Shown here one piece after another: positions 10,948 to 17,888 of a stretch of 31,967 bases of DNA. The DNA comes from an uncultured Hyphomicrobiales bacterium (GTDB lineage: Bacteria; Pseudomonadota; Alphaproteobacteria; Rhizobiales; Xanthobacteraceae), in NCBI GenBank assembly GCA_964449645.1, contig CAYVBN010000353.1, positions 1-31,967 on the forward strand, read 5' to 3'. The notes below the pieces were generated by a model that had not been told where the DNA came from, did not search any database, and saw only the letters and a list, made by a program, of their open reading frames with translations. The translations under genes were made by a program, and so were the position numbers. Position 1 is the first letter of the stretch, and every line of letters begins with the position of its first letter.

Positions 10948-11793
10948 GTCGTGTGGACACTTATCGTGTCCATAGCACGATAGCTGCGAGAGTGACGACT
11001 GCGCGGTAATTTCGGGCGGTCTTTTCGAAGCGGGTTGCAACGCGTCGGAACTGCTTGAGCTTACTGAAACAGCATTCCACCAGATGTCGCTGGGCGTAGA
11101 GATGCTTGTCGAGCGGATATTTGAGCGCCCGTGACGGGTTGTTGGGAATCACGGCCAACGCTCCCTTGGCGGCGATGGCTTGCCGCAGGTGGTCCGCGTC
11201 ATAGGCTGTATCGGCCATGACGACCTCGGCGGGCAGTTCCTCGATCAGGGCTGCAGCTTGTGGTGCATCACCCTTCTGACCCGCGGTCAGTATGAACCGC
11301 ACGGGGCATCCCAAGCCTCGAACGGCCATGTGGATCTTGGTGCTCAGGCCGCCGCGCGAACGGCCGATGGCTTGATCTTCAGACCCCCTTTTTTAGCCCC
11401 GGCAGCGGGCTGATGGGCGCGGACGATGGTGGAATCAACGATCAGATATTCGAAGTCCGGATCATCGGACATCGCCTCGAAGATGCGCCACCAAACACCT
11501 TTGGTGCTCCAGCGACTGAAGCGCCGGAAAACGCTGTTCCAATCGCCAAACACCACGGGAAGATCACGCCAGGGCGCGCCCGTCCGCACAATCCATAGGA
11601 CGCCCTCCACGAACATTCGGTTGTCGCGTCCAGTTGATCCCCTTTGGTCGGGCCGGCCGATGATCAGCGGTGCCATCCGATCCCACGCCGCGTCGCTCAA
11701 AACCAAACGGTCCATCACACCCAAGACTGCCTCCCAAAACGCAGTCTTGAATCTGATTTGCCGCTTCAAGGGAATCCCAAGTGTCCACACGAC
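10948..11793 (-). mobile_element. IS5-family insertion sequence (IS427-group-like), 846 bp
   Basis: Perfect 15-bp terminal IRs GTCGTGTGGACACTT (10948-62)/AAGTGTCCACACGAC (11779-93), flanked by CTAG on both sides (10944-47, 11794-97). An alternative reading is 10947-11794 with a TA duplication. Confidence 0.92.
10961..11715 (-). CDS. IS5-family transposase, split orfA/orfB joined by a -1 frame change
   Basis: orfA is MDRLVLSDAAW...WIVRTGAPWRDLP...IVDSTIVRAH. orfB is GRSRGGLSTKIH...MADTAYD...RHLVECCFSKLKQFRRVATRFEK. A6G5 run at the junction (+ strand 11384-11394). Confidence 0.9.
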
Positions 11794-12159: not shown

Positions 12160-12374
12160 TTCAGCCCCAAAACGCTATTCCGGCAGAGGTGCAATGATGC
12201 CACAGGGGAATTTCCGCCTCGCTGAGCCGATCACTCGCATTTTAGCGATCCCGGAAAGCCTGCTCCGATCTCGGGCACGCGTCCCGAGCACAAAATACCG
12301 AACCATCTGTGGGTTGCCCGGAACCTGGTTCGAGGTTCGCCATCAATGATATAAGGCGAATTCGGAGGCATACG

Positions 12375-12758
12375 GTGCCCGACCGAGGCAAGAAGCGAGG
12401 CTGGAGCCCATTGCGGCGCATCACCGCCTGGGTCGTTGCCTATGCGCTTGTCCTCCACGCCATCCTCGGACTGGCGCCGCTCCACCACGAGGGCGGCCAC
12501 GCCCTCGCAACGGAGTTCTGCGCGGGCACCAGCGGACCCGGCACATCCGGCCACAGCGGCCAGTCGGGGCATTCCGGAAGCTGCTGCGACCTTTGCCTCG
12601 CCTGCGGTTGCGCGGCGTTCGTCGCTCCCGATGCTGTTCGTGCTACATCCGAGCCTTCGGACCCGGATCGCATTCGATGGTCGTCTCTGCATGACGTCGG
12701 GCGGTATCTCCCCGGACTGTTCAAGGAACAAGCCCGAGCACCTCCGCTGACGGCCTGA
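12375..12758 (+). CDS. DUF2946-family leader protein (CruR/CutF-like) with C-terminal RAPP motif
   Basis: GTG 12375 with GGAGG at 12364-68. Basic N-terminus, TM segment ITAWVVAYALVLHAILGL, EFC, CCDLCLACGC, and the end QARAPPLTA. Confidence 0.85.
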   Translation: MPDRGKKRGWSPLRRITAWVVAYALVLHAILGLAPLHHEGGHALATEFCAGTSGPGTSGHSGQSGHSGSCCDLCLACGCAAFVAPDAVRATSEPSDPDRIRWSSLHDVGRYLPGLFKEQARAPPLTA

Positions 12759-12810
12759 CATCGGCGGCTCGCCCGCCCCATTCGCCGTCTCACGCCATCG
12801 GCAGCGGAGG
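12741..12810 (+). promoter_or_regulatory. Predicted SD-sequestering mRNA structure between the DUF2946 leader and the next gene
   Basis: CCTCCGCTG (12741-49; the Pro-Pro-Leu codons) is the exact reverse complement of CAGCGGAGG (12802-10), which contains the SD of ATG 12816. Confidence 0.7.
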
Positions 12811-12815
12811 ACTTC

Positions 12816-13805
12816 ATGTCCATTCGTACGCTCCGCGCAGTCCTGCCGGGACTTGCGCTGATACTGGTTCCAAGCGGAATCCAAGCCCACGAGATCGTGG
12901 GCAAGAGATTCTTTCCGGCCACGCTCGCGATCGACGATCCCGGGGTCAACGACGAACTCGCCTTCCCGACCATCTCCGTCTTCAAGAACGAGGACGATCC
13001 TTCGGCTCGCGAGTTGGACGTCTCGGGAGAGTTCTCGAAACGCATCACCGAAGACTTCGCGGTTTCGTTCGAGCCCACCTGGACTCACCTCCGCGCTCCG
13101 GGCGGGCCGAACGGGACCGACGCATCGGGCTTCCAGAATCTCGAAACGACCTTCAAGTATCGCCTTTATAAAAATCCGACGCACGAGTTCGTGCTTTCGG
13201 CCGGCCTCAACGTCGAGTGGGGCGGCAGCGGCGCTCAGCAGGTCGGAGCCGAAAGCTTCACCACCTACACGCCAACGGTCTTTTTCGGCAAAGGCCTCGG
13301 CGACCTGCCGGAGACGCTGAACTGGGCCCGCCCGTTCGCGATCACCGGTCAGGTCGGCTATGCGATCCCGGGATCGAGATCGAGCACCACGTTCGATCCC
13401 GACACGGGCGATCTCGACTTCGAGCAGCACCCCGATGTCCTGGTCTGGGGCGCATCGCTCCAGTACAGCCTGCCCTATCTGAACGCCTCGGTGGTCGATC
13501 TCGGGCTGCCGGACTTCGTCAATCGGCTGATCCCGATCGTCGAGGTTGCGCTGCAGACGCCTGTCGCCAACACTTTGACCTCGGGCACGCTCACCACCGG
13601 AACGGTCAATCCCGGCGTGCTCTGGGTCGGCGACACTTACCAGGTCGGGCTCGAAGCGATGATCCCGATCAACCGGGCGAGCGGGACCAGCGTAGGCGCC
13701 ATCGCCCAGATCCATTTTTATCTCGACGACATCTTCCCCCATTCGATCGGCCGGCCGATCTTCGCCGTGTCCGACAGCACAGGGAGGCCGAGCTTCGGCA
13801 ACTGA
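12816..13805 (+). CDS. Uncharacterised exported protein, probable outer-membrane beta-barrel with mature N-terminal His
   Basis: Signal peptide ending GIQA|HEIVG. Alternating amphipathic strands such as LDVSGEFSKRIT, FAVSFEPTWTH, LETTFKYRLY, VWGASLQYS and YQVGLEAMIP. Confidence 0.7.
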   Translation: MSIRTLRAVLPGLALILVPSGIQAHEIVGKRFFPATLAIDDPGVNDELAFPTISVFKNEDDPSARELDVSGEFSKRITEDFAVSFEPTWTHLRAPGGPNGTDASGFQNLETTFKYRLYKNPTHEFVLSAGLNVEWGGSGAQQVGAESFTTYTPTVFFGKGLGDLPETLNWARPFAITGQVGYAIPGSRSSTTFDPDTGDLDFEQHPDVLVWGASLQYSLPYLNASVVDLGLPDFVNRLIPIVEVALQTPVANTLTSGTLTTGTVNPGVLWVGDTYQVGLEAMIPINRASGTSVGAIAQIHFYLDDIFPHSIGRPIFAVSDSTGRPSFGN

Positions 13806-13807
13806 CC

Positions 13808-14164
13808 ATGCGCATCACCACTCTCGTCATCGCAACCGTCGCGACCCTGCAGTTGGGAATGGCGGCCGCAAGCGCGCACGCGCATCTCGAGCGCGCCGAA
13901 CCGGCGGTCGGAAGCTCGGTGAAGACTCCTCCGCGCGAGGTCTCGATCCGGTTCACCCAGAAGCTCGAGCCGTCGTTCAGCACGATCGAGGTGACCGACG
14001 CGTCCGGAAAGCGCGTCGACAATGGCCGTGCCCGGATCACCGGCAACACCATGCAGGTCCCGCTCCAGCCGATCGGCGCAGGCACGTATCGGGTGAAGTG
14101 GCACGCCCTCTCGGTCGACAGCCACACCACCGAGGGCGATTTCACGTTCCGCGTCGGCCAATAA
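13808..14164 (+). CDS. copC: Periplasmic copper-binding protein CopC
   Basis: Signal peptide ending ASA|HAHLERAEP, then F...LEP and YRVKWHALSVDSHTTEGDFTFRV. Confidence 0.93.
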   Translation: MRITTLVIATVATLQLGMAAASAHAHLERAEPAVGSSVKTPPREVSIRFTQKLEPSFSTIEVTDASGKRVDNGRARITGNTMQVPLQPIGAGTYRVKWHALSVDSHTTEGDFTFRVGQ

Positions 14165-14195: not shown

Positions 14196-16151
14196 ATGGA
14201 CAACTTCCCGCTGATCGCCGTGCGCGCGGTCCACTTCGCCGCCACGGCGGTCAGCGGGGGCGTGGTGCTGTTCCTGGTGGCGGTCCTCCGGCCGGCTCTG
14301 GCCGAAACGCGAGAGGCCGAAGCCGACGCGGCAGAGTTTCACGCACGCTGCATCCGGCTTGCCTCTGGGAGCGTCGCGGTCGTTCTGGTGACGGCTCTCC
14401 TCTGGGCCATGCTGGAAGCCGCCGCCATGAGCGGCGAAAGCTTCGGTGCGGCGCTCAGGACCGGATTGCTCTGGACCGTATTGGGGCAGACGACGTTCGG
14501 CCTCTCCACCGATGTCCGGTTCGGTTTGGCCCTGCTGCTCGCCATCAGCCTGGCGCTGACCGGCGCGCACCGCGGCATGCTGTGGCTCGGCCTTGCGGCT
14601 GCCGCCGGCCTGCTCGGCGGGCTTGCCTGGACCGGCCATGCGGCGGCCACGGAGGGGTGGACCGGGACGCTGCACCGGGTTGCCGATGTCCTCCACCTTC
14701 TCGCCGCAGGCGCGTGGATCGGAAGCCTCGTTCCGCTGGCCATGGTCCTGACGATCGCCCGCCGGCGCGCCGATAGCCGCTGGGCCGCGATCGCGCGTGG
14801 CGCCACGGCCCGGTTCTCCACGATCGGCGTCATCAGCGTCGGCACGCTGCTCGCGACGGGAATCGTCAACACGTGGATCCTTTCCGGCACGCTGCCGGCG
14901 CTCTTCGGAACCGGTTACGGACACCTGCTGCTGATCAAGATCGGCCTGTTCGCCGCCATGGTGACGCTCGCGGCGGTCAACCGGCTGCGGCTGACGCCGC
15001 ACCTTGCCGATCCGCAAGGCAGCACATCGTGGCGGCACGCGTCGCACCGGTTGACGCGCAACGCCATCGCGGAGACCGCCTTGGGGCTGGCGATCTTCGC
15101 CGTGGTCGGCGCGCTGGGAATTCTCGTTCCCGGACTGCACGACCAGCCGACCTGGCCGTTTCCATATCGCCTCGCCGGCCAGTTCGCGGGCGATCCCGCG
15201 CTCGACGGCACGACGCTCCTCGCGCTGGGTGTGACCCTCGTGGGCATTTGTCTCATCGTCGGCGGCCTGTTCTGGCGCGAGATGCGCTGGCCGATGCTGA
15301 TCGGGGGCGCCGTGCTGGCCGCCAATTTCGGGACAGGCCTCGGCAGCCTGTTTGTGGAAGCATATCCGACGACCTTCTATGCCTCGCCCACCGGATATGC
15401 CGCCTCGTCGATCGCGCACGGCCGGGATCTGTTCGCCGAGCATTGCGTGGCGTGCCACGGCGTCGGCGGCCGGGGCGACGGTCCGGCCGCCGCCAACATG
15501 GCCATCAAGCCGGCCGACCTCGTTGCCGACCACGTCTACGCCCACACCGACGGCGACCTGTTCTGGTGGATCGGTCACGGCATCGGCACGGCCATGCCGG
15601 GCTTTGCCGCAGTGCTCGACGACGACGCCCGCTGGAATCTGGTCGATTTCATTCACGCGAATGCGGATGCGGCGCACCTGAAAGCGGCGGCCGGAACGGT
15701 CAGCGCGAACGGATATCCGGCCCCGACCTTCTCGGCCGACTGTCCCGATGGGTCGTCGATCTCGATCGAGGACCTGCACGGCCAGATCGTGCATGTGGCG
15801 GTGGGCGTCTTCTCACCGGACCTGATCAATGCCTTCGCGGAGCGCAGCCGCGCGGCCAGAACGGCGGCGATCCTGATCGCCCGTGATCCGCCGGCCGAAC
15901 TGCCTGCCGCGGTTTGCGCCGCCACGGACGAGAATGTCGTCCGCGTATTCGACCTCTACAGAACGATCGGCGCGGCGCCGGAGCGGACAACCGAGTTGCT
16001 GATCGACACCGGCGGATCGCTGCGCGCCCTGTGGTTCAGGGGCGTCCGCCCCGATTGGGCGAATCCTCCTGCTTTCGCACAGGTGGTCGAAACGCTCCGC
16101 GCAACGCCCGCGCAGCCGCGCAGCACCGGCGGCCATGCTCATCATCACTGA
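14196..16151 (+). CDS. copD: CopD-family inner-membrane protein fused to a cytochrome c domain and a redoxin-like domain
   Basis: RAVHF, LAWTGHAA, DVLHLLAAGAWIGSL, RFS, YGHLLLIK and AAVNR (CopD). CVACH (15444-58) plus AMPGF (cytochrome c). PAPTFS...ISIEDLHGQIVHV (redoxin-like). The protein ends HAHHH. Confidence 0.88.
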   Translation: MDNFPLIAVRAVHFAATAVSGGVVLFLVAVLRPALAETREAEADAAEFHARCIRLASGSVAVVLVTALLWAMLEAAAMSGESFGAALRTGLLWTVLGQTTFGLSTDVRFGLALLLAISLALTGAHRGMLWLGLAAAAGLLGGLAWTGHAAATEGWTGTLHRVADVLHLLAAGAWIGSLVPLAMVLTIARRRADSRWAAIARGATARFSTIGVISVGTLLATGIVNTWILSGTLPALFGTGYGHLLLIKIGLFAAMVTLAAVNRLRLTPHLADPQGSTSWRHASHRLTRNAIAETALGLAIFAVVGALGILVPGLHDQPTWPFPYRLAGQFAGDPALDGTTLLALGVTLVGICLIVGGLFWREMRWPMLIGGAVLAANFGTGLGSLFVEAYPTTFYASPTGYAASSIAHGRDLFAEHCVACHGVGGRGDGPAAANMAIKPADLVADHVYAHTDGDLFWWIGHGIGTAMPGFAAVLDDDARWNLVDFIHANADAAHLKAAAGTVSANGYPAPTFSADCPDGSSISIEDLHGQIVHVAVGVFSPDLINAFAERSRAARTAAILIARDPPAELPAAVCAATDENVVRVFDLYRTIGAAPERTTELLIDTGGSLRALWFRGVRPDWANPPAFAQVVETLRATPAQPRSTGGHAHHH

Positions 16152-16923: not shown

Positions 16924-17451
16924 TCAGTGCCCCGGCATGTTGCCCATGCTGCCCATGCCCTGCATGCCGGGTTTGGCGGGCGCCTGCGAGTTCTTCGGAC
17001 TTCCGCCGATCCCCTCGACCTCGTATTCGACGTCGACGCTGCCGGCCTTCTCGAATTTCAGCGTGCCCTTGATGTGCTGCCCTTTCTCGAGCGGCTGTTT
17101 CAAGCCCACGAACATGATGTGGTAGGAGCTGTTCGGCCCGAGCTCGACCGTTTCGCCGGGCTTGATTTCGAGACCGCCGGAGACCGGCCGCATCTTCATG
17201 ACGCCGCCGTCCATCTTCATCTCGTGCACCTCGAAACGCTGGGCGACGGCGGACGTGCCGCCGATCAGGCGATCCGGTTCGGTCCCCGAATTGGTGATCT
17301 TCATATATCCGGCCCCGACGCTTGCACCTTTCGGCGTGGCGCGCGACCAGGGGTGAGCGATTTCCAGAGGCCCGACCTTGTATCCCTGGGCGGATGCTGC
17401 GGTCGCGCCGAGCGCGAGCGCTGCCGCGAGAATCACAGTTGCGAATTTCAT
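16924..17451 (-). CDS. Periplasmic Cu(I) chaperone PCuAC
   Basis: ATG 17451 (MKFATVILAAALALGATAASA). HPWSRATP, GAGYMKITN and HEMKMDGGVMKMR...HIM (H-x-M...M...HxM) motifs, plus a Met-rich tail. Confidence 0.93.
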   Translation of the reverse strand: MKFATVILAAALALGATAASAQGYKVGPLEIAHPWSRATPKGASVGAGYMKITNSGTEPDRLIGGTSAVAQRFEVHEMKMDGGVMKMRPVSGGLEIKPGETVELGPNSSYHIMFVGLKQPLEKGQHIKGTLKFEKAGSVDVEYEVEGIGGSPKNSQAPAKPGMQGMGSMGNMPGH

Positions 17452-17458
17452 GTCGTTC

Positions 17459-17555
17459 GATCCCAATGTGAGCCGCCGTGCGCGGCGGCTGGCCTGAACA
17501 GGAGTTGACGTCTGCTTCAGGCGAGCGCAGGCGGGCCGCGCGCCGCATTGGGCTC
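17459..17555 (-). promoter_or_regulatory. Predicted structured leader junction sequestering the PCuAC ribosome-binding region
   Basis: On the minus strand, GAG-CCCAATG-CGG (17555-43) can pair with TCA-CATTGGG-ATC (17471-59). This encloses GCCTGAA/TTCAGGC and AGCCGCCG/CGGCGGCT hairpins. Confidence 0.5.
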
Positions 17556-17888
17556 CCGGCGTGCGGCCTGTCCAAGCGTCCCGGAGAGCACCTCGGGCCG
17601 CAGGACAGCGGAGTGCGGCGTCCGGACGACCGCGGGCGCTGGAGCGGATACGGGCGCGAGCCCGCCCGCGCACATTGGCATGGGACAGAGAAGGCACGCG
17701 TGTTCGACCGGATGGACGCGCCCAGGCGATCCGTCGGACTGCGGACCGAGGTTCGCGGTGCACAAGATGGTGAGCGCGCCGGGAACGGCCGCTTGCGCCA
17801 TCTGGAACGCCCCCAGCGACACCTGGAGCGCCAGCACGTAACAGAGGGCAAGCGCAACCGCGTTCGAGAGAGGCCGACGGGCTGTCAT
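17517..17888 (-). CDS. DUF2946-family leader protein with C-terminal RGPP motif
   Basis: N-terminal TM/signal (VALALCYVLALQVSLG), LTILC, HACLLCPMPMC and the end NAARGPPALA. It lies 65 nt upstream of PCuAC. Confidence 0.82.
   Translation of the reverse strand: MTARRPLSNAVALALCYVLALQVSLGAFQMAQAAVPGALTILCTANLGPQSDGSPGRVHPVEHACLLCPMPMCAGGLAPVSAPAPAVVRTPHSAVLRPEVLSGTLGQAARREPNAARGPPALA

Follow-up and report, generated by a model that had tools for sequence, protein, structure and literature searches.

We describe here a large family of small barrel proteins which probably carry out an outer-membrane step of bacterial copper uptake not described before, taking as its reference a gene on the 31,967-nucleotide (nt) contig CAYVBN010000353.1 (GenBank assembly GCA_964449645.1) of an uncultured Hyphomicrobiales bacterium of the family Xanthobacteraceae; this whole stretch of DNA is hereafter called the window. 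The gene, at 12816-13805 on the forward (+) strand, encodes 329 amino acids (aa; P0001) and is modelled as a 12-stranded barrel, the mature form of which would begin with a histidine, His25 of the precursor. We hold it somewhat likelier than an even chance that the barrel is a copper-repressed, TonB-independent entry point of the outer membrane, in which Cu(II) held at a periplasmic site made of His25 and Asp305 would go to a docked CopC and onward to CopD. The fold is a known one, and so is the pathway; undescribed are the barrel family, its pairing of an N-terminal His with an Asp and its direct association with CopC. Among the steps of copper homeostasis in bacteria, the crossing of the outer membrane is one of those less well understood, and so is the source of the copper that CopC carries, on which the family also bears.

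The barrel family and its N-terminal histidine

The open reading frame (ORF) 12816-13805 is a real gene and not a chance frame, because thousands of homologous clusters exist, more than 6,146 at 90% identity and 1,824 at 50% identity (exhaustive search, E <= 0.001). A ribosome-binding site, GGAGGA at 12806-12811 (+) as read from the sequence, lies 4 nt 5' of its ATG. Carriers include Bradyrhizobium, Nitrobacter, Methylocystis/Methylosinus, Paraburkholderia and Cupriavidus, and among them are nitrogen-fixing, nitrifying and methane-oxidising bacteria dependent on copper enzymes. Pfam and NCBIfam scans of the barrel protein gave no match, phmmer and profile searches of the PDB sequences returned chance matches only (to PorM and to low-complexity regions of Shaker), and the named database copies, RefSeq plasmid copies included, are all labelled 'hypothetical protein'. 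Eight longer homologues (334-500 aa) have extra parts without a Pfam domain; the extension of one of them, P0268, resembles read-through from a gene like those of the cation diffusion facilitator (CDF) family.

Residues 1-24 (12816-12887, +) are predicted to be a signal peptide, with a basic n-region, a hydrophobic core of 12-14 residues and I-Q-A at positions -3 to -1, and the AlphaFold2 model of this region has a low predicted local distance difference test (pLDDT) score and a helix at residues 3-14. Sec-type cleavage at I-Q-A|H would leave His25 (codon 12888-12890) as the mature N-terminus, since the sequence rule and the family alignment point to the same place: no cut other than that before His25 agrees with the consensus of the family, A-x-A|H-x-x-x-G-x-R-x-F-P(-x-T). 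In our family alignment A1, which holds 61 members at 32-74% identity, the conserved His always stands 4 residues ahead of an invariant Gly. His25 is kept in all 120 of the closest cluster representatives; of the representatives of the 50%-identity clusters, 80 could be aligned and 61 of these have it. The original prediction, made from the letters of the window alone, had proposed a cleavage at GIQA|H which exposes a His1 as in the CopC encoded next door, and had named loss of this His from the family as a finding that would count against it. The A-x-A|H junction across the alignment and the conservation of the residue speak for that proposal, and the junction of the adjacent CopC, A-H-A|H, likewise gives a mature His1.

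The mature protein would start with a conserved segment, residues 25-46 (12888-12953, +), which precedes strand 1 and comprises His25, Gly29, Arg31, F-P-x-T, D-D-P and D-E; no other part of the protein is conserved as well across the family. The segment is modelled with high confidence (pLDDT 94-95 over residues 31-50) and is probably equivalent to a plug. One subgroup has Cys at residues 26 and 43 (12891-12893 and 12942-12944), giving H-C ... D-D-P-C; both Cys occur in about 11 cases, the second alone in 1 and the first alone in 0, and the copy of the window has Glu and Gly at these positions. The pattern suggests a disulfide or extra thiol ligands beside His1, and because Cys at residue 26 co-varies with Cys at residue 43, the N-terminal segment would fold back on itself and bring His25 near the D-D-P motif.

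Fold and structural relatives

The AlphaFold2 model built from the 61-sequence alignment (pLDDT 90, predicted template modelling score 0.85) has 12 long strands, at residues 47-57, 65-76, 81-93, 103-120, 125-135, 150-160, 174-185, 207-217, 238-251, 261-271, 275-284 and 294-302. The beta-strand patterns noticed in the original prediction are thus modelled as an outer-membrane-type barrel and not as a soluble fold. VIA-align gave as the best structural match FapF (5o65; Z 21.7, 243 residues aligned), followed by the COG4313 channel 4rl8 (Z 20.5, root-mean-square deviation 2.9, 233 residues aligned), NanC/KdgM (Z about 17), autotransporter barrels (Z about 15) and PcoB (7pge, Z 12.1). The Foldseek comparison which the prediction had called for was run as well; it found FapF at E 7e-9, and the top fold matches were all outer-membrane barrels. 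In the ESM Atlas three unnamed clusters have the same shape (template modelling (TM) score 0.88-0.90), and a PF13557 cluster scores 0.72. When aligned by structure with FapF and COG4313, the model is matched from its residues 30 and 38 onward, and in the structures of both these proteins the segment before strand 1 plugs the lumen. The protein has a predicted signal peptide and 12 modelled strands, and many members have an aromatic residue at or near the C-terminus, as outer-membrane barrels generally do; these members end G-K-P-x-F, and the copy of the window has 13 residues beyond that Phe. It also shares with COG4313-like channels the 12 strands together with a confidently modelled N-terminal segment, which would lie in the lumen. 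The barrel has, by its model, the fold of small plugged channels, yet no kinship of sequence to FapF or COG4313 is detectable, and we take it for a separate family.

Three known families were considered and rejected. The first was that of a divergent Phenol_MetA_deg (PF13557) protein. No PF13557 match at E <= 0.1 was found in the barrel protein, and the genome-wide PF13557 scan hit a different gene (on contig C386). Two of the 61 family members have weak PF13557 matches, the best at E 0.0025, and hhalign of A1 against ten true PF13557 proteins of related genomes gave a probability of 5.5% over 97 columns, upon which the idea was dropped; the value was obtained with a small target alignment and is compatible with a very remote kinship. 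CopB/PcoB was rejected because neither the barrel protein nor any other part of the genome matched PF05275. A TonB-dependent transporter has a Plug domain, 22 strands and at least 600 aa, whereas the barrel has 12 strands in 329 aa and no PF07715 or PF00593 match; the earlier remark that the protein is too short for such a receptor was therefore right.

His25 mostly accompanies a neighbouring CopC gene

In all 83 close loci, which are 57-76% identical and come from Pseudolabrys, Bradyrhizobium, other Xanthobacteraceae, Methylocystaceae and two betaproteobacterial metagenome-assembled genomes, copC directly follows the barrel gene; copD is next in nearly all of them and a PCuAC gene often comes then. 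Furthermore, in a sample of 401 genomes spread evenly over the phylum, 11 carry the barrel and 93 carry a CopC over the cut-off, and CopC is present in 11 of the 11 barrel genomes. The barrel thus occurs in about one in nine of the CopC-bearing Pseudomonadota genomes sampled. CopC is the next gene for 10 of the 11 barrel matches from the 10 other carrier genomes of the sample. Plasmid copies in Nitrobacter and Paraburkholderia are likewise followed by CopC and CopD, and further neighbours are PCuAC in the window and, in Paraburkholderia, SCO and TlpA.

Beyond the close relatives the presence of the His tracks the adjacency of CopC. CopC is adjacent in 16 of 18 His-type cases (11 matches from the phylum sample, 5 distant members looked up singly and 2 plasmid copies) and in 0 of 5 non-His cases, counts which are uncorrected for kinship and should be read as a pattern rather than as a statistic. 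Among the distant His-type members P0163, P0210, P0222 and P0201 have CopC as neighbour; the non-His members P0175, P0252, P0236, P0161 and P0206 have none. Matches to the CopC hidden Markov model (HMM) from alternative-frame ORFs in the loci L085 and L098 (HMM positions <165, overlapping the barrel gene) were discarded.

Some observations on individual loci may be recorded here. After the non-His member P0175, the ORF at L085:2847-3194 (+) ends R-A-P-P-A-L-stop like an arrest leader, and the next gene encodes 528 aa of unassigned family. The non-His member P0252 adjoins a small cupredoxin-like protein of 117 aa (L086:1554-1907, +), whose likeness to cupredoxins is weak (E 0.02) and which has a C-x-H-x-H-x-x-x-M motif resembling a type-1 copper site; members without His1 may also be copper-linked. 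A His-type subgroup with the mature end H-G-I-A-G-N-R (loci L098 and L119) lies among CDF-type cation-efflux genes, and the link of the family to metals may be wider than copper. In genome G269 the CopC at L090:5937-6296 (+) would mature to an N-terminal Cys (A-R-A|C-A-L-L), and its barrel neighbour keeps His1.

Predicted complex with CopC and a candidate metal site

The structure of the mature barrel (alignment A1) with mature CopC (alignment A3) was predicted in three runs with three controls. The score of the pair was 0.71 (0.70-0.73 over the runs), that of the best control 0.00. Of solved complexes 58 of 80 pass at that mark, as do 2 of 110 mismatched pairs, figures which apply here only roughly because the alignments were our own. 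Agreement between the runs is at least 97% of contacts, and the partner has a pLDDT of at least 88. The predicted interface comprises barrel residues 27, 29-30, 32, 121, 220, 223-228, 230, 233, 273, 304-305 and 308-309, which, going by strand order, all belong to turns on the periplasmic side, to the N-terminal segment or to the C-terminal tail, and CopC residues 24 (His1), 26-30, 33-36, 50-51, 104-106 (with the Asp and His ligands) and 108-112. Its core on the barrel is a periplasmic helix and loop between strands 8 and 9 (residues 220-233; 13473-13514, +), and the contacts of lowest error join barrel residues 223-228 with CopC residues 26-36 and 110-112. The prediction places the Cu(II) site of CopC against the barrel face which carries His25 and Asp305. 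To our knowledge no like complex is known, so that a pass owed to a memorised complex is unlikely. In addition, residues 220, 226, 228 and 305, whose conservation is confined to the His-type, CopC-linked members, lie inside the predicted interface, and this conservation is independent of the model. Taken as a model, the complex supports binding between the barrel and CopC.

Asp305 is the position which best tracks His25. In the 61-sequence alignment it is present in 96% of the 46 His-type members as against 13% of the 15 non-His members, and the next best trackers are Asp228, Asp40, Pro220 and Val226. Among the 80 alignable representatives 56 have both His25 and Asp305, 5 have His25 without Asp305, 3 have Asp305 without His25, and 16 have neither. 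On a tree built without the trait columns, His25 was lost at least 5 times on well-supported branches and up to 8 times in all, and Asp305 changed in the same direction as His25 in 3-4 of 5 independent pairs and in the opposite direction in 0. The codons of Asp304-Asp305 are at 13725-13730 (+). Because the two residues directly follow the last strand, and the N-terminus of the barrel is on the same side, they would be periplasmic. A ligand set made of the amino terminus, the imidazole and carboxylates would suit Cu(II).

The leader peptide, the operon and its genome

The operon consists of a leader ORF, a 57-nt gap, the barrel gene, copC and a copD-cytochrome c fusion. The leader, at 12309-12758 (+) with an uncertain true start codon, is probably of the DUF2946 type and resembles CruR. 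It scores 23.2 bits against Pfam DUF2946, just under the cut-off of 23.7, with E 1.3e-4 and a full-length alignment (1-117). The hallmarks of CruR are an N-terminal export signal, a CxxC motif and an RAPP motif which is separated from the CxxC by about 45 residues and from the stop by three (PMC9426467). In the leader of the window the N-terminal segment is hydrophobic, Cys residues cluster at 12582-12611 (+), with CDLC at 12585-12596 together with CLAC, and RAPP at 12735-12746 (+) is followed by 3 codons (L-T-A) and the stop; this RAPP lies 46 residues from the first CxxC motif and 43 from the second. In Bordetella, ribosome arrest on the RAPP of CruR keeps the operon on without copper, and copper sensed through the CxxC relieves the arrest, upon which Rho terminates transcription and the operon goes off (PMC9426467). 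The barrel is indeed the first gene after such a leader, as had been proposed. The arrangement is widespread in the family: among the 95 loci with enough upstream sequence for a search of the leader motif, 82 have an upstream ORF that ends R[AG]PP plus 2-5 residues, with its stop about 60 nt before the barrel gene. A tblastn search with the leader of the window gave almost no matches, because the leaders are poorly conserved.

CopC is encoded at 13808-14164 (+), starting 3 nt after the stop of the barrel gene (Pfam PF04234, E 1e-24), and its mature His1 is residue 24. The ligands His24, Asp104 and His106 are nearly invariant in 21 partner CopCs. This CopC has no Met-rich motif and, by the classification of the CopC literature, is of the Cu(II)-only type. 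The third gene (14196-16151, +) encodes CopD fused to cytochrome c (Pfam CopD E 1.8e-24, Cytochrome_CBB3 E 1.5e-12; NCBIfam copper_CopD 226 bits). The periplasmic cytochrome c domain occupies about residues 400-490 and is followed by a tail of about 160 aa without a family match; the CopD of most relatives has about 320 aa and no cytochrome c fusion. It may be speculated that the haem domain reduces Cu(II) before import. The genome itself, 92.8% complete, holds a single CopC and, as far as the scans of it go, no OprC-type receptor over the cut-off and no CopB, which fits a stand-alone role of the barrel. The sequencing runs listed for this stretch are of DNA from soil and plant metagenomes, with no RNA run among them.

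A second, convergent copper module lies at 16924-17888 (-). There, a Cys-containing leader ORF of 123 aa (17517-17888), ending RGPP plus 3 residues and a stop, precedes a PCuAC chaperone gene at about 16924-17445 (-; Pfam E 3.8e-38), so the window holds two copper units, each headed by an arrest peptide, which face each other. About 0.5 kb upstream of the copper operon, adjacent ORFs of 122 and 148 aa (10961-11790, -) resemble by eye the halves of a frameshift-split IS5-family transposase. An Rfam scan of the whole window gave no match and no known riboswitch.

Proposed role and alternative explanations

We propose the following course of events. By analogy with Bordetella, the CruR-type leader would let the operon run only when periplasmic copper is scarce. 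On the periplasmic side of the barrel, His25 and Asp305, with Asp304 and Asp40/41 near, would make up a 'histidine brace plus carboxylate' site for Cu(II); CopC would dock with its His1/Asp/His site facing the barrel, take the Cu(II) and pass it on to CopD. We infer the passage of copper through the barrel, the binding of copper by His25 and Asp305, the independence from TonB and the direction of uptake. The direction is suggested by the CruR-type leader, by the neighbours for respiratory copper delivery and by the view of CopCD as importers, systems of the CopCD/YcnJ type having been described as such. The scheme can be tested with two residues, a partner CopC and cultured carrier strains.

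Several points weigh against this proposal. The nearness of His25 and Asp305 is deduced from their co-variation and from the placing of both near the predicted interface, and the sign test of the independent pairs gives p of about 0.125, underpowered with so few pairs. The gap between leader and barrel is only 57 nt, whereas CruR operons usually have long gaps, and leaders of the DUF2946 type can in principle act with either polarity. An open path for ions is not implied by the fold, because both closest folds are plugged in crystals and COG4313 is thought to carry hydrophobic molecules. Two His-type members stand apart from CopC: the barrel of genome G283 (L098, G283:C9) keeps His1 and sits between two CDF efflux genes, and P0268 (L119) neighbours CDF-like genes without CopC. 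On the conjugative plasmid 2 of Nitrobacter hamburgensis X14 (L117; NC_007960.1, 42454-55455) the genes for the barrel, CopC and CopD follow an efflux pump of the resistance-nodulation-division (RND) type, two 'copper-binding protein' genes and DUF411, without an annotated DUF2946 leader, and the whole looks like a resistance island. In one distant locus, L099, the cluster of the barrel also holds, 1.7 kb upstream, a gene for TonB and one for a TonB-dependent receptor; the barrel can thus coexist with a receptor and does not always replace one. Lastly, our literature searches found no paper on the family and no experimental datum on any member.

The plasmid copy, which makes it plain that the trio of barrel, CopC and CopD can travel within an island of the resistance type, also means that uptake is not the sole possible direction. 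The barrel could instead be an exit duct or a resistance component, an analogue of PcoB/CopB which releases the copper of CopC to the outside or otherwise lowers periplasmic copper. For this speak the island with its RND pump, copper-binding proteins and DUF411, the two His-type members flanked by CDF-like efflux genes, the classical cop/pco resistance operons, which likewise join an outer-membrane barrel with CopC and CopD, and the match to the 12-stranded PcoB (Z 12.1). We nevertheless regard efflux as unlikely. A CruR-type leader is found at 82 of 95 loci and in the studied case shuts off with copper; the operon has no multicopper oxidase; PCuAC, SCO and TlpA, all concerned with copper delivery to respiratory enzymes, are frequent neighbours; and CopCD/YcnJ are described as importers and the barrel has no match to CopB (PF05275). 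It is, we believe, distinctly unlikely that the barrel conducts nothing and is either an outer-membrane tether which holds CopC near general porins or a copper-sensing gate with a metal-responsive plug. The crystal structures of FapF and COG4313 are plugged, and our strongest signals all concern the periplasmic face and the CopC contact and none the pore lining, as a tether or gate would have it; yet a 12-stranded barrel is a costly anchor, and the acidic N-terminal segment (D-D-P, D-E) and the buried Arg31, Glu124, Glu243 and Glu280 are kept even in members without the His or CopC, which suggests a conserved function of the lumen.

The likeness to COG4313 (4rl8, Z 20.5), together with the PF13557 cluster of the ESM Atlas at TM 0.72 and the weak PF13557 matches of 2 of 61 members, would also accord with uptake of a copper chelate or a hydrophobic ligand through a lateral opening, CopC receiving the copper after its release. 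This we consider highly improbable, as no kinship of sequence to PF13557 is detectable (hhalign 5.5%), chalkophore biosynthesis genes were not seen in the loci examined, and the predicted direct contact with the metal site of CopC fits the transfer of a bare ion. Least of all do we expect the barrel to be a pore for polypeptides, like FapF, through which CopC or some other small protein would reach the cell surface and scavenge copper outside the cell. FapF is indeed the best fold match (Z 21.7), but the barrel has no N-terminal coiled coil of the FapF type and just 22 residues from its mature N-terminus to strand 1; CopC is known to work with the inner-membrane CopD, to which it is fused in YcnJ-type proteins, and it is predicted to be folded and docked on the periplasmic face, not threaded. 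A copper-repressed entry point which hands Cu(II) to CopC thus remains our preferred reading.

Comparison with known systems

With the COG4313/Phenol_MetA_deg channels (Pput2725, 4rl8) the barrel shares a monomer of about 300 aa, 12 strands and a segment before strand 1 which lies in or under the lumen. Only the barrel, however, has the His1, the acidic N-terminal motif and the copper operon, and COG4313 members are linked to hydrophobic substrates. With the amyloid secretion channel FapF (5o65) it shares the fold of a plugged 12-stranded barrel, but identity is about 10%, the barrel has neither the coiled-coil N-terminal domain nor a fap operon, and the substrate of FapF is an unfolded polypeptide. 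In the case of PcoB/CopB (7pge, PF05275), too, the gene for an outer-membrane barrel stands with copC and copD in copper operons. The structural likeness is only generic, and the partner of PcoB is the multicopper oxidase PcoA and its expression is copper-induced, whereas the barrel pairs directly with CopC behind a CruR-type leader.

The copper TonB-dependent transporters (OprC/NosA, and BfrG under CruR in Bordetella) have in common with the barrel the place of first gene after a leader of the DUF2946/CruR kind and the same presumed task of copper uptake under copper scarcity. The barrel differs from them in its 329 aa, its 12 strands and its lack of Plug and TonB-box domains, and because of this lack it could act only passively. 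The established outer-membrane routes of copper are porins, TonB-dependent receptors and chalkophore uptake (2020 review, PMC7558416). That the family amounts to a fourth, TonB-independent route, with a small plugged barrel, a His25/Asp305 Cu(II) site at its periplasmic exit, direct handover to the histidine brace of CopC and an arrest-peptide switch, is a tentative proposal to which we give rather less than an even chance. Finally, the N-terminal His copper sites of CopC and the 'histidine brace' of lytic polysaccharide monooxygenases (LPMOs) and PmoD resemble the putative copper site of the barrel in that cleavage before a conserved His exposes an amino group and an imidazole. In contrast to the sites of LPMOs, PmoD and CopC, that of the barrel belongs to a membrane barrel and has Asp305, rather than a second His, as the candidate partner ligand; if the proposal is true, the N-terminal-histidine copper site is extended to a membrane barrel.

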